From Escherichia coli (lineage in GTDB: Bacteria; Pseudomonadota; Gammaproteobacteria; Enterobacterales; Enterobacteriaceae): a stretch of DNA of 64,000 nt. Position numbers and translations under genes: made by a program. The DNA is taken from assembly GCF_024700885.2 (NCBI RefSeq), contig NZ_CP117016.1; one strand, given 5' to 3'. Below the pieces are notes generated by a model. It made no database searches and was not told where the DNA came from. It saw only the letters and a program-made list of their open reading frames with translations. Positions 1,538-40,571 of this stretch are shown here, piece by piece; within the stretch, counting starts at the first letter, position 1; each line of letters opens with the position of its first letter.

Positions 1538-1555
1538 AAATCACTCCCACTCAAT
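1538..1555. repeat. attL core direct repeat (AATCACTCCCACTCAAT)
   Basis: 17/18 identical to the sequence at 40554-40571 that overlaps the guaA stop codon. Confidence 0.6.
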
Positions 1556-1665
1556 TATTTACGACAAGCATAACCAATTGAGTGACAACATTTTTCCAAA
1601 ACTTAATTATTACCGTACCGTTTTATATACCGTCACCGAAAATCAGTACCATGAAAAATGCCATG

Positions 1666-2148
1666 CTATCTGGTCAAAGTGTCGTACTGTTTTTCGCAGA
1701 CTCTTCCGGCTTCGGCTGCCCGGTCAGCATACTCTGCCAGTTGTCTGTTTCTCTCGAGAGATTTGCTGAACACGTCGGCAAGCAAAACTCCGGTGTCTGC
1801 GGCTGACGACCCAGCGCCGACAATGGCGTTATACTGCCTGAGCTGCTCACGGATGGCAACGAGCTGTTGCTGCAACCGGCCAGCGCGAGCGGCAGCATCA
1901 AGAGCATCATTGCGCGCCTGGTCGATCCTCTGCTGAGCTTCACGTTCATTGGTCGCTTTCTCCTGTTCGTAGTGCTGACGAACTATCTCATCTTCAGCTT
2001 TGCGGTCTTCCTTCGCCTGCGCATACCCGGCGTCGTACTGACGACTGCCGTGTGCATTCCAGGCTACAACTCCTGATATGACCAGAACAGCAAGCATCGC
2101 CATGATAACCAACTGTTTCCAGTATGCTTTTGCGAATGCCAAGATCAT
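1666..2148 (-). CDS. i-spanin (Rz-like)
   Basis: N-terminal TM segment then charged coiled-coil; immediately downstream of endolysin with 4-nt overlap; contains embedded lipoprotein ORF. Confidence 0.7.
1674..1949 (-). CDS. o-spanin (Rz1-like lipoprotein) embedded out of frame in Rz
   Basis: Alternative-frame ORF inside Rz with lipobox LALAGC and Pro/Ser-rich mature part; exact start uncertain. Confidence 0.55.
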   Translation of the reverse strand: MNVKLSRGSTRRAMMLLMLPLALAGCSNSSLPSVSSSGSITPLSALGRQPQTPEFCLPTCSANLSRETDNWQSMLTGQPKPEESAKNSTTL

Positions 2149-2774
2149 ACCGCCAGCACCTTACTGGCAGTGATGTACCGCGCGCGCCGGTCGTCGATGC
2201 CGTTCCGGCCACCATTGATAATCAGAGTTACACGTGCAATATCGCCGGTATACTTCATGCATCCTTTGCTGGCGAAGAACCACGCCGCGCTACGAGCCGC
2301 ATATTCGTCCTGCGCCAGCAGTTCAGGGCTCTCCAGCAGGTCAACCTTCAGACCGTTTCCGCAATCACGATAGTTATTCAAACCGGTAATCTGGATAAGT
2401 CCGCGCCCTCGGTAATTCCAGCCATCACCAGGGGCATTGTTCCCCATGCGTTTGCTGTATACCAGATTTGCGATCGCGCGCTGGCGCTCAAGTGGCAATG
2501 GTGGTTCACCAGCACGGCGCCCCAGTGCATTAGCCTGTCCCTGGGTGAGGCGTCCAGTCCTGACAAAGCTCGCCAGTCCGGTAACGCTGTAGTTGAAATT
2601 CTCCTGCAACCTGGTGAAGCCACCAGACTCATGCCCGACTTGAGCAATAAACATTGCCTGATCTTCGGGCTTGCTGATACCAAACTCTTTCATCGCAGAA
2701 GTGATATGCGAGAACCAGCGTGCGGCCAGCGCCTCGCTGATACTAGCAGCTCGCTGGAATTGTTTAATCTCCAT
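2145..2774 (-). CDS. endolysin, glycoside hydrolase family 19 (chitinase-like lysozyme)
   Basis: Motifs [36 protein letters not shown] typical of GH19 phage lysins; start taken at internal Met ([11 protein letters not shown]). Confidence 0.8.
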
Positions 2775-3072
2775 GTTTAGACCTCGATACTTTGAAAATT
2801 TGAACGACGTTACCGCGCGTTTTAATAACCGCAGCAAGCATGACAGCGTTGATAATGACCTCAGATAAATCAGCTACCATTGGCGTACGAAACCAGATTG
2901 CATAGGCGACGCGAACAGGAATACTTGCCGCAGCAACAATCAGGAAATAAGCAAGCCACCCACCCCATCTTCGGTGTTGGGAGCCGTTACGCCGGAATGT
3001 AACAACGCGAACTGCAATGCCAGTACAAATAACTGCATTGGTGATAAGCAAAAAAAGCTCATGAGTTACCAT
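2764..3072 (-). CDS. holin-like membrane protein
   Basis: Small protein with 2-3 hydrophobic helices and charged C-terminus, directly upstream of endolysin. Confidence 0.5.
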
Positions 3073-3484
3073 CGTCTTTTCTCCCCGGAATTAAGTCGCG
3101 TGGATTATCGGAGCGGTGATAGAGCCATATTCCAATACGCACTGCTACAATCGCTGACACGAATGCGCCAGCAGAGAAGACAACCCCTTTCTCGAAAGAA
3201 TCCTGCGTAATGGTGGGGATTAGACTGGCTATGCCTATAAGAATTGATGCTGTTGGTTTGTAAAAGAGAAGACCACAAAGAAAGCTGAGTATCGACAAGA
3301 GTACACGACGACGAACAGGATACTCTACAGCAGAGGTAACAAAAATTACCGAACCAGAGAGTGAACCCAATGCAACTTCAGGTGGAACACCAGCAAGTAC
3401 CGATACAAGCGAACACGCACTAAGATATTGATTTAAAGAAAAACTTGTAAATTGCAATGACATAAAAGTCACCATTTTTATCAA
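3059..3484 (-). CDS. holin/antiholin-like membrane protein
   Basis: Multiple hydrophobic segments; first gene of the lysis cassette; start uncertain. Confidence 0.45.
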   Translation of the reverse strand: MIKMVTFMSLQFTSFSLNQYLSACSLVSVLAGVPPEVALGSLSGSVIFVTSAVEYPVRRRVLLSILSFLCGLLFYKPTASILIGIASLIPTITQDSFEKGVVFSAGAFVSAIVAVRIGIWLYHRSDNPRDLIPGRKDDGNS

Positions 3485-3643
3485 TCAAACACAAATTCAA
3501 TTCATGAATTCACCGCCTCAATTAAACCATATTTGGTTTGCTCTTGCCTAGTGTCATTATTATTTATATAGTGACATACCAACTTTCAAATTATAATTTA
3601 TATATTTTAGGACCAAACCCAATACATTTTAAAAGGTGTAACA

Positions 3644-38919: not shown

Positions 38920-39110
38920 ACAGGGCATCACCAGCAGATTTAAGGAAATGCCTTGAAACTGCAAACATGCTTGCACACAGCGGGATCAGGTTTGTTCCAA
39001 TTCCCGCTGTCACTGATGCTGAATTTGCAACACTGTCAGCAATATTCACAGATAAAATTGAATCACTGGCAGCAGAAGCCGAGATGGAAGAAAATCAGCA
39101 GAACTATTAA
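38916..39110 (+). CDS. small hypothetical protein (64 aa)
   Basis: ATG overlaps methyltransferase stop (ATGA). Confidence 0.4.
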   Translation: MNRASPADLRKCLETANMLAHSGIRFVPIPAVTDAEFATLSAIFTDKIESLAAEAEMEENQQNY

Positions 39111-39113
39111 ACG

Positions 39114-40364
39114 TTATTCCCCCGCCATCCACTTCTCAAACTTCGACGGGGAGAACGGAATCAGATCCGTATGCTCCCCGTTAATCCAGGAATCAATCAT
39201 ATCGGCCCACTGCTGCAACATGTAGGCGCGCTGTCTGGCGTATTCCGCTTTGTTATATACGGCGCGCACACCTTTCTGCTCATGTGCCAGAGCCTTTTCA
39301 ATCCAGTCTGAAGGATAACCAGCCTCATGCAACAACGTACTGGCTGTACGGCGCATATCGTGTACGGTGAAGTCCTGAATATGCTCACCATCTTCATTTA
39401 TTATTTTCACCGTTCTGTCGATCAGAGAGTTCAGCGCGGCATTAGATAATGGCTTCCGGAAATTGTAACGACCAGGAACCAGATATTCACTTCCACCAGC
39501 GCACATCTGCAACCCGACCAATATATCCTGAACCTGTTTAGGCAGGTAAATAACATGCGCCCGGCTTCCCTTCATGCGGTCTGAAGGAATTGTCCATGTC
39601 CATTTTTTAAAATCTATTTCATCCCACGTTGCATTGGTGAATTCGCCCTTACGAACCATAGTGATAAGCACCAGTTTTAAAGCCATTTTCATAGTGCCCA
39701 TAGCACCAATGGCATCCAACGTGCGGAAGAACAGGCCAATTTCTTCTGGTGTCAGTGTTCGCTCTCGTGGTTTAAATATGGCGATAGACGAAGGTTTAAT
39801 GTCAGCCGCAGGATTAAACAAACCATGACCACGGTCATTGGCGTGACGGTATACGCTGCTGATGATCTCCCTGGCCTGTACTGCTGTTGCCCGACCACCG
39901 CGTTCGACAATCCGGTCACACAAATCACGAACCATCGATGTGGTAATTTCAGCCATCATTTTGTTGCCAAGAACCGGAAGTATGTCACGGTCGATCACCG
40001 CCTGCTTCATTGCGCGGGTACTGTCAGCCAGGATGACGTGTTTCATATAACTGTCGGTATGTACCGCAAACGTCTCGGCACCACGAATTTTTTTGATACC
40101 GTCACGTTTAGCCGCAGCCGGCGACTGGCCTGCTTTAAGCAGCTTCTTTGCAGCAATCAGTTCTTCTCGCGCTTCTGCCAGGCTGATACCGTCACGCCCA
40201 TACTGCCCGATTACCAGTGTTTCGCGGCGACCGTTGATACGGTAGTCATAGCGAAACGAGACCGTGCCTGACGTAAGCACAGCTACATACAGCCCGTCAC
40301 GATCGGAGACCTTGTACAGTTTGTCCTGCGGCTTGAGGTTTTTTAATTTTGTATCGGTAAGCAC
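39114..40364 (-). CDS. int: tyrosine integrase (P4-like, N-terminal DUF4102-type arm-binding domain)
   Basis: 416 aa; C-terminal catalytic region with HDMRRT and terminal Tyr-containing segment; adjacent to attR. Confidence 0.9.
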   Translation of the reverse strand: MLTDTKLKNLKPQDKLYKVSDRDGLYVAVLTSGTVSFRYDYRINGRRETLVIGQYGRDGISLAEAREELIAAKKLLKAGQSPAAAKRDGIKKIRGAETFAVHTDSYMKHVILADSTRAMKQAVIDRDILPVLGNKMMAEITTSMVRDLCDRIVERGGRATAVQAREIISSVYRHANDRGHGLFNPAADIKPSSIAIFKPRERTLTPEEIGLFFRTLDAIGAMGTMKMALKLVLITMVRKGEFTNATWDEIDFKKWTWTIPSDRMKGSRAHVIYLPKQVQDILVGLQMCAGGSEYLVPGRYNFRKPLSNAALNSLIDRTVKIINEDGEHIQDFTVHDMRRTASTLLHEAGYPSDWIEKALAHEQKGVRAVYNKAEYARQRAYMLQQWADMIDSWINGEHTDLIPFSPSKFEKWMAGE

Positions 40365-40406
40365 AATTCACCCGTATAGAAACCATTTTCATGACGGTAT
40401 GAGAGT

Positions 40407-40431
40407 ATACCTTTAAGGTAATACCGTCACC
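40407..40431. promoter_or_regulatory. integrase upstream region: ATACC-TTTAA-GGTAA palindrome overlapping putative arm-type site ATACCGTCACC
   Basis: 11-mer ATACCGTCACC also present at 1627-1637 near attL. Confidence 0.4.
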
Positions 40432-40553
40432 TGTACCGCCGAAAAATATGGTGTAGAGTGAATAGAAATGAATACATAAAAACAAAAACCCCCTGCAAAA
40501 ACAGAGGGTTGAGTTGGCATCTGAATAGGAATGATTTGCTATGAGTTAGCTGT

Positions 40554-40571
40554 TAATCATTCCCACTCAAT
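40554..40571. repeat. attR core direct repeat (AATCATTCCCACTCAAT) overlapping guaA stop codon
   Basis: Matches 1538-1555 with one mismatch. Confidence 0.6.

Follow-up and report, generated by a model that had tools for sequence, protein, structure and literature searches.

A Uetakevirus prophage between yfgI and guaA

The window, by which we mean the whole 64,000-nucleotide stretch of Escherichia coli DNA that was analyzed, contains a prophage between yfgI and guaA (Table 1). The prophage encodes a lysis cassette, a tailspike, virion proteins, portal, terminase, replication proteins, a repressor, RecET, a Xis-like protein, a methylase, and an integrase. It is ~97% identical over 73-86% of its length to phiv142-3, HEMP4, and phiV10, with weaker matches to the epsilon15 group, and its gene order is that of the phiv142-3 annotation, in keeping with the similarity and collinearity expected of a Uetakevirus. 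The attP of the genus is also present, as the exact reverse complement of attgagtgggaatgatt located 190 bp from the int start (position 40364), and integration is at the 3' end of guaA, as in other members. PADLOC, run on ten cargo and early ORFs, detected no defence system and recognized only the MT-A70/type II methylase. On its sequence, the element is an ordinary Uetakevirus prophage at an already published attachment site, and it is apparently intact.

Table 1. Coordinates of the prophage, its junctions, and associated features in the window.
Feature	Position	Strand	Evidence or remark
Prophage body, 39.0 kb, Uetakevirus of phiV10/epsilon15 type	1556..40554		Nucleotide identity, PHROGs, RefSeq annotation of the same DNA (strain MLI114)
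Original host guaA terminator	1488..1515	-	Part of empty-site sequence; now downstream of prophage lysis genes
yfgI-side core copy AATCACTCCCACTCAAT	1539..1555		Host allele C; displaced original guaA end (IEWE-stop, GAG TGA on minus strand)
Candidate arm-type site ATACCGTCAC, Rz-side arm	1627..1636	+	82 bp from exchange segment; position invariant in seven phages
NeuO-like hexapeptide-repeat O-acetyltransferase cargo gene, 374 aa	3644..4768	+	Between lysis cassette and tailspike
Tandem array of GCACAGCA	4419..4760	+	3' end of acetyltransferase gene
Candidate excisionase/AlpA-type regulator, 82 aa	37619..37867	+	phrog_66 "excisionase and transcriptional regulator", E=2e-16
Tyrosine integrase (int), 416 aa	39114..40364	-	Arm-DNA-bind_3, central, and catalytic domains; start 190 bp from core
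ATACCGTCAC, third copy within int, inverted	39843-39852		
ATACCGTCAC, second copy within int	40096-40105		R87-I90
ATACCGTCAC inside int coding sequence	40186..40195	+	Codons R57-D58-G59-I60
Inverted partial copy ATACCGTCAT, int-side arm	40391-40400		Inverted relative to ATACCGTCAC at 40421-40430
Candidate arm-type site ATACCGTCAC, int-side arm	40421..40430	+	140 bp from exchange segment
Phage-supplied intrinsic terminator	40487..40510	-	47 nt downstream of guaA stop; conserved in seven phages; terminator in phiV10 and epsilon15 records
guaA-side core copy AATCATTCCCACTCAAT	40555..40571		Phage allele T; reverse complement of published attP/attB core attgagtgggaatgatt
guaA (GMP synthase), intact, 525 aa	40557..42134	-	Third base of last codon and stop codon phage-derived; annotated complete
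Exchange segment TCCCACTCAAT, 11 bp	40561..40571, also 1545-1555		Allele partition

Occupancy of the site was determined across complete E. coli genomes. The int-guaA junction was present in 567 of 5,426 genomes (~10%), and the yfgI-guaA site was uninterrupted in 4,564 of 5,425 (84% empty). The Rz-side junction was found in 362 genomes compared with 567 for the int side, a gap that probably reflects variable lysis ends or mosaic elements.

The site has been described before. Phage vB_EcoP_ZX5 uses the same 17-mer as attP and attB at the guaA 3' end, with integration proven by PCR and Sanger sequencing in a study that also cites phiV10 and epsilon15. TL-2011b inserts in guaA (PMC3293862), and the GIsul2 island uses the guaA 3'-end site GAGTGGGA (PMC9376610). 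A first-pass annotation of this DNA had called the target unusual. This holds to the extent that a protein-coding gene is a less common target than a tRNA gene for this type of integrase, but publications already place ZX5, phiV10, epsilon15, and TL-2011b at this very position, GIsul2 shares the guaA site, and ~10% of complete E. coli genomes have it occupied. Core, guaA target, and integration at this site are thus already known, and the integration offers no novelty; the annotation had correctly read a textbook arrangement that was previously described for the genus and can be found in public annotations.

Attachment sites and strand exchange

The prophage is flanked by direct copies of the 17-bp core AATCA(C/T)TCCCACTCAAT, which occurs at the two junctions and nowhere else in the window. 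The pattern AATCAYTCCCACTCAAT had two matches, with C in the yfgI-side copy and T in the guaA-side copy, and none in 100 shuffles. The first-pass annotation had reported a core of 17-18 bp beginning at 1538 and 40554. The repeat is real, but these starts are one base too far left: the bases at the two positions are A and T, so that the repeat is a 17-mer with a single mismatch rather than 18 bp long.

When the outer flanks were joined, the resulting 1,000 bp matched the empty yfgI-guaA site of 19 E. coli genomes at 100% identity. This comparison, which the annotation had proposed as a check, revealed a single core copy and boundaries exactly as predicted, and one copy in the empty site against a direct repeat at both prophage junctions is the pattern of Campbell-type integration. 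Joining the inner ends gave a sequence that aligned in one piece over ~1,000 bp with the uninterrupted attP of free phiV10, ZX5, and epsilon15. Across 21 phage records, such unbroken alignments covered 985-998 of 1,000 bp, and identity to vB_EcoP_ZX5 in the attP region was 96%. Phage identity, the empty site, and the match of the joined ends to free-phage attP confirm a prophage at the guaA 3' end. The result is of use chiefly in the annotation of prophage boundaries.

The short direct repeat that flanks the element could also be a transposition target-site duplication or the product of homologous recombination, and the repeat is the sole point in favor of this explanation. The free phage genome, however, carries the same 17-mer once, next to int; the prophage annotation includes no transposase; 567 genomes share this junction; and integration has been shown experimentally for the phage with the 96%-identical attP region. 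An origin by either route is extremely improbable and is refuted by the empty site, the free-phage attP, and the recurrent junction; the lack of a transposase further counts against a target-site duplication. Our preferred model, to which we assign a probability of about 0.95 as a whole, is that a temperate Uetakevirus podovirus (phiV10/epsilon15 type) became part of the chromosome through site-specific recombination of the Campbell type, in which a P4/CP4-type tyrosine integrase would have recombined the attP core with the identical last codons of guaA.

The single mismatch in the core allowed the exchange to be placed. The polymorphic base is T in seven of seven phage attPs and C in the perfectly matching empty-site relatives, and the lysogen retains the host C next to yfgI and has the phage T in the guaA copy. 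Strand exchange is thereby confined to the 11-bp TCCCACTCAAT, which reads ATT GAG TGG GA on the guaA strand. Beyond that point in the 3' direction, the lysogen guaA consists of phage DNA, which supplies the third base of the closing Glu codon, the stop codon, 47 nt of spacer, and the intrinsic terminator. The opposite assignment (phage C, host T, and exchange to the left of the mismatch) was rejected, as no phage had C and perfectly matching empty sites did. In Citrobacter, Klebsiella, and Providencia lysogens, host-specific sequence begins directly to the left of TCCCACTCAAT or of ATTCCCACTCAAT, and the native guaA end that was displaced in the Citrobacter lysogens is GAA TAA. An exact pattern scan for TCCCACTCAATTATTTAC over 100,044 species genomes returned 11 loci, four of which (in Nostoc, Calditrichota, Ignavibacteriae, and Halalkalibacillus) had unrelated flanks and were dismissed as chance matches.

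Both core copies encode the end of GuaA. The right copy, ...ATT GAG TGG GAA TGA, reads IEWE plus stop and so contains the last guaA codons and the stop codon as first annotated, and the left copy likewise specifies IEWE and a stop, in this case with GAG TGA. The related terminator-like hairpins noted at both ends are likewise present, and both lie on the guaA strand with related stems. On the minus strand, the guaA-side hairpin (40510 to 40487) has a 10-bp stem and the yfgI-side hairpin (1515 to 1488) a 12-bp stem, each followed by a T run; the latter also acts as a hairpin for yfgI on the plus strand. Restoration of the guaA 3' end and terminator by the phage, proposed in the first-pass annotation, is shown by the C/T allele partition: guaA remains a complete 525-aa ORF with an element-derived terminus. 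Judged from these alleles, at least 4 nt of guaA coding sequence is replaced and the protein is unchanged. Transcription of guaBA is predicted to end before int. The displaced host guaA end and host terminator are now located behind the prophage lysis genes. In the circular phage, the phage terminator lies between the lysis genes and int, and no sigma-70-like int promoter was found between this terminator and the int start.

The arrangement is shared with vB_EcoP_ZX5, phiV10, epsilon15, phiv142-3, and TL-2011b, which have the 17-bp core 190 bp upstream of int and the guaA 3'-end target. These phages are also alike in terminator, arm motifs, and gene order, with ~96-97% DNA identity for the E. 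coli members and 87% in the attP region for epsilon15. They differ from the prophage in the tailspike and in the cargo between lysis and virion genes, sequenced phages covering only 73-86% of its length, and in that the host attB here is one base off attP, which is what made mapping of the exchange possible. P4/CP4-57-type integrases are similar in having PF13356, PF22022, and PF00589 domains, an attP beside the 5' end of int, and a target whose 3' end is restored, but they target tRNA or tmRNA genes, whereas the prophage uses the last four codons (IEWE) of a protein gene. The IEWE end presumably serves as a target because it is conserved. Lambdoid phage 21 and the element e14 integrate at the 3' end of icd and supply an alternative 3' coding end, with a replaced segment of tens of codons that carries substitutions. 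The prophage resembles them in that its target is the 3' terminus of a protein gene that is essential or central to metabolism but exchanges at least 4 nt of guaA with no change to the protein, in contrast to the tens of substituted icd codons. GIsul2 and related guaA islands use GAGTGGGA, located within the 11-bp exchange segment, encode a tyrosine integrase, and leave guaA intact (PMC9376610); GIsul2 differs in being a non-phage island with sul2/ISCR2 and, probably, in its integrase lineage and att arms. Narrowing of the exchange to 11 bp by a one-base allele partition and the population figures are small refinements of this picture.

Integrase and candidate arm-type sites

The int product matched PF13356 (Arm-DNA-bind_3; 8.4e-20), PF22022 (1.6e-11), and PF00589 (3.2e-19, nearly full length), the Arm-DNA-bind_3, Phage_int_M, and Phage_integrase combination of P4/CP4-57-type enzymes. 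The initial assignment as a P4-type integrase thus agrees with the P4/CP4-type arm-binding domain found here. Structure matches were PDB 3ju0 and 3jtz (N-domain of a CP4-like integrase) and lambda Int (1z1b), and the translation includes the strings VRKGE, HDMRRT, AHE, and VYNKAEY, candidates for the catalytic Arg, His-x-x-Arg, and Tyr residues.

The integrase of the close relative phiv142-3 is split into two ORFs, and by that precedent the element could be a cryptic, immobile prophage whose att repeats are relics and which no longer excises. Here, however, int is a full 416-aa ORF; the genes for lysis, virion, packaging, replication, repressor, and Xis-like functions are full length; neither core copy nor any arm motif is damaged; and spontaneous induction from this site occurs in the close relative ZX5. 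We therefore regard a cryptic prophage as unlikely. For a functional one, excision would be steered by the 82-aa Xis/AlpA-like protein.

The 11-mer ATACCGTCACC, put forward in the first-pass annotation as a candidate integrase arm site, is present exactly at 1627-1637 and 40421-40431. When one mismatch was allowed it had 8 matches against 0.68 expected, a number reached by no shuffle. It coincides with ATACCGTCAC sites that the epsilon15 record (AY150271.2) lists as protein_bind "integrase", an annotation that is itself a prediction, and motif positions -465, -375, -140, and +82 are kept in seven phages of E. coli, Salmonella, Enterobacter, and Klebsiella. We infer that the N-terminal arm-binding domain of Int would occupy the conserved ATACCGTCAC motifs of both arms to form the intasome.

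The ATACCGTCAC repeats might instead be sites for Xis, an IHF-like protein, or a repressor, parts of an RNA hairpin, or, within int, a repeated R-D-G-I peptide. The int-side motif and its inverted partial copy form an inverted pair that is also an RNase III site in the epsilon15 record, and both intragenic copies encode RDGI. We find such explanations rather improbable, given that in seven phages the spacing between ATACCGTCAC and the core is constant on either arm, with variable bases next to the motif, and that Int carries an arm-binding domain. For the two intragenic copies, synonymous positions were invariant at five of six, against 22% invariant codons in the background, a difference that is suggestive only, as the phages are related. 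Taken jointly with the reading of the octanucleotide array given below, it is possible, if somewhat doubtful, that the intragenic pair represents real Int-binding sites under synonymous selection. In that case, the int gene would belong to its own intasome or to an autoregulatory circuit.

A cargo acetyltransferase gene with an octanucleotide array

Between the lysis cassette and the tailspike, the prophage carries a gene for a NeuO-like hexapeptide-repeat O-acetyltransferase whose best PDB match is NeuO (3jqy, E=2.8e-18). Its 3' end consists of a perfect tandem array of the 8-bp unit GCACAGCA in 42.75 (~43) copies. Copy number ranged from 17 to 53 between strains and differed by one unit in two assemblies of one strain. 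NeuO of prophage CUS-3 is a phase-variable K1 capsule O-acetyltransferase with an in-gene VNTR of widely varying copy number (PMC3046976). The cargo gene shares features with this contingency locus, being a prophage-borne NeuO homologue, a left-handed beta-helix O-acetyltransferase, with a variable copy number and a VNTR unit that is not a multiple of three. It differs in having an 8-nt unit at the 3' end rather than a 7-nt unit at the 5' end, and its carrier is a Uetakevirus, a different prophage.

All three frames of the array encode the same peptide repeat, giving an (AQQHSSTA)n C-terminal tail, and the catalytic part lies upstream. Slippage would alter only the length of the tail and which of three endings it has (the last 1, 3, or 22 residues). 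The array, located 3' of the catalytic region and encoding one peptide repeat in every frame, does not fit on/off switching by frameshift; any functional switch would thus need another mechanism. A search of the literature for the octanucleotide unit or repeat together with an acetyltransferase or prophage found nothing relevant.

From its sequence, and under the same tentative joint judgment as the intragenic Int sites, the array could be a second, mechanistically different phage-borne contingency locus. If so, a surface-polysaccharide O-acetyltransferase would be tuned through a variable C-terminal tail, with a hydrophobic ending in every third copy-number class. The array is of more interest than the integration site and merits separate attention, as this hypervariable octanucleotide repeat may be a new form of phage-carried cell-surface variation.

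Prophage boundaries, gene content, and prevalence

In the 64-kb window there are just two copies of the 17-mer AATCAYTCCCACTCAAT, with Y=C in the left (yfgI-side) copy and Y=T in the right (guaA-side) copy; none turned up in 100 dinucleotide-preserving shuffles. The first-pass annotation had correctly placed a core repeat at both ends of the insert but started each copy one base early (bases 1538 and 40554 are unlike). As it had stated, the right copy is the end of guaA, with the minus strand reading ATT GAG TGG GAA TGA at the terminus of the ORF; the left copy (ATT GAG TGG GAG TGA) also encodes IEWE followed by a stop. 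Terminator-like hairpins with related stems and exact copies of the 11-mer ATACCGTCACC were likewise recovered at both ends.

Features of the prophage and its flanks
Feature	Coordinates	Strand	Remarks
Left core copy	1539-1555		Y=C
Right core copy	40555-40571		Y=T
Left hairpin	1515-1488	-	guaA strand
Right hairpin	40510-40487	-	guaA strand
ATACCGTCACC	from 1627 and from 40421		11-mer
NeuO-like O-acetyltransferase ORF	3644-4768	+	374 aa
GCACAGCA array	4419-4760	+	342 bp, 42.75 copies
tRNA-Arg(UCU)	25570-25646	+	between portal and terminase regions
PerC-family activator	37977-38276	+	upstream of int
MT-A70 methyltransferase	38257-38919	+	upstream of int
int	39114-40364	-	416 aa
Extra ATACCGTCAC copies	40096-40105, 40186-40195, 39843-39852		in int
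Direct repeat	40458-40471, 40521-40534		flanks phage terminator
Inverted repeat	40527-40535, 40555-40563		spacer and core
guaA	40557-42134	-	525 aa, complete (RefSeq)
sroE	50194-50285	-	Rfam
STnc490	62993-63116	+	Rfam
IS128	63794-63972	+	Rfam

When the outer flanks (1056-1555 and 40572-41071) were joined, the sequence matched the yfgI-guaA region at 100% identity, in one piece, in 19 complete E. coli genomes. The joined inner ends (40072-40571 and 1556-2055) aligned in one piece with the free phages phiV10, vB_EcoP_ZX5, epsilon15, SPN1S, BUCT554, and BUCT711. The prophage boundaries thus coincide exactly with the core copies, and joining the inner ends yields attP.

The 39.0-kb insert is ~97% identical to Escherichia phages phiv142-3, HEMP4, and phiV10 (genus Uetakevirus) over 73-86% of its length. 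PHROGs assignments and RefSeq annotation of this DNA show that its gene set is full: lysis (spanin, endolysin, and two holins), virion (tailspike, internal virion proteins, and major capsid protein), packaging (portal and terminase), replication (DnaT-like and P-like proteins), repressor, RecE/RecT, MT-A70 methylase, an 82-aa excisionase-like protein, and integrase. A PerC-family transcriptional activator and the MT-A70 (type II-like) DNA methyltransferase are encoded just upstream of int; among ten cargo and early ORFs, PADLOC returned no defence match besides this methyltransferase. The tRNA-Arg(UCU) gene is oriented against the late genes on either side of it; phiv142-3 has this gene too, with its annotation on the other strand. 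Three Rfam sRNA matches in the chromosomal flank beyond guaB look like ordinary, prophage-independent chromosomal genes.

The yfgI-guaA site is uninterrupted in 4,564 of 5,425 complete E. coli genomes. The int-guaA junction is present in 567 of 5,426 and the yfgI-Rz junction in 362 of 5,426, and ~300 further genomes have an interrupted site but lack this int-guaA junction. These unequal counts and other interruptions suggest mosaic left ends or other elements at the guaA site. Junctions of vB_EcoP_ZX5 in guaA have been confirmed by PCR and Sanger sequencing, and a phiV10-like phage of an O103:H25 outbreak strain resides in guaA (PMC3293862). Given these reports and the 567 genomes, the first reading correctly described an arrangement that is already known; its view that guaA is an unusual target holds only generally, in that integrases of this type mostly target tRNA genes.

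Crossover position and candidate arm sites

The polymorphic core base is C in empty-site relatives and T in the attPs of all seven aligned phages; in the lysogen, the yfgI-side copy has C and the guaA-side copy has T. This partition puts the polymorphic base outside the crossover, toward the flank, and confines the exchange to the 11 bp TCCCACTCAAT. Further hosts were found when species-representative genomes were scanned for the exact pattern. Host-specific sequence starts directly left of ATTCCCACTCAAT in Citrobacter werkmanii and C. braakii, where the displaced native guaA end reads GAA TAA, versus GAA TGA in the phage-supplied end. Providencia rettgeri shares this boundary and the TAA stop, and in Klebsiella pneumoniae host-specific sequence likewise starts just left of the block. 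These sequence boundaries support exchange within TCCCACTCAAT. Together with the allele partition, they indicate that the lysogen's guaA is phage DNA from, at the latest, the last base of its final codon onwards, through the stop codon and 3' untranslated spacer to the terminator, bearing out the earlier proposal of a phage-supplied gene end. The published GIsul2 site, GAGTGGGA, falls within the same segment (PMC9376610).

The 10-mer ATACCGTCAC lies at -465, -375, -140, and +82 from the exchange segment in each of the seven phages, whose hosts are E. coli, Salmonella, Enterobacter, and Klebsiella, with at most one mismatch in a few copies; five of the seven have an inverted copy at -170. The epsilon15 record AY150271.2 annotates exactly these positions as predicted integrase protein-binding sites, alongside IHF sites, RNase III sites, and the terminator. 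Int has an Arm-DNA-bind_3 domain and, at its N-terminus, matches solved N-domains of CP4-like integrases. The int coding sequence itself carries ATACCGTCAC, including copies at codons R57-I60 and R87-I90, and the epsilon15 record marks two of the three intragenic copies as predicted integrase-binding sites. Five of six synonymous positions in the R57-I60 and R87-I90 copies are invariant across the seven phages, versus 22% invariant codons in the rest of the first 197, which suggests selection on DNA but is not proof because the phages compared are related.

At the guaA core of P. rettgeri NZ_CP053896.1 (~7235, minus strand) is a different element, with two adjacent ATACCGTCA motifs ~75-100 bp inside the arm and otherwise unrelated flanks. 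Core and arm motif thus extend beyond the E. coli/Salmonella Uetakevirus group.

An octanucleotide array in a NeuO-like cargo gene

The lysis cassette and tailspike are separated by an oppositely oriented ORF whose residues 1-260 form a hexapeptide-repeat O-acetyltransferase. Its best solved relative is NeuO of prophage CUS-3 (3jqy, E=2.8e-18), a phase-variable O-acetyltransferase of the K1 capsule; no close homologue was found among 50,697 phage records. The 3' third of the gene is a perfect tandem array of GCACAGCA. Read as its reverse complement, the window corresponds to E. coli MLI114 (NZ_CP117013.1), from which it differs by one 8-nt gap across 43,012 aligned bases; the RefSeq record of this strain has 43.75 copies, the sole difference in 43 kb. 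Three other strains have 52.75, 16.75, and ~23 copies, strain EC0026B lacks the array and has just an imperfect proto-repeat, and members of the E. coli protein cluster range from 264 to 365 aa. Since three units span 24 nt, all three frames encode (AQQHSSTA)n, and slippage alters only how long the tail is and whether it ends in VI, stops right behind the repeat, or runs on into 22 hydrophobic-tail residues. The NeuO VNTR is a heptanucleotide at the 5' end through which translation is turned on and off (PMC3046976), a mode of action that is not open to this array. No description of it was found in the literature searched.

Proposed terminator exchange at the guaA 3' end

The direct repeat (G/C)TGAATAG(A/G)AATGA lies on both sides of the phage terminator, and the inverted repeat GGAATGATT/AATCATTCC connects the spacer with the left half of the core. 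Both show partial conservation across the seven aligned phages and could be accessory-protein or core-type sites.

On its minus strand, the circular phage has the order Rz, core, terminator, int, so the phage terminator would end the late lysis transcript. Once integrated, it would end guaA instead, and the host guaA terminator would move behind Rz. The phage terminator is conserved throughout the seven-phage set, and the phiV10 stem is identical to that of the E. coli guaA terminator, which suggests that the attP region descended from a captured guaA 3' flank.
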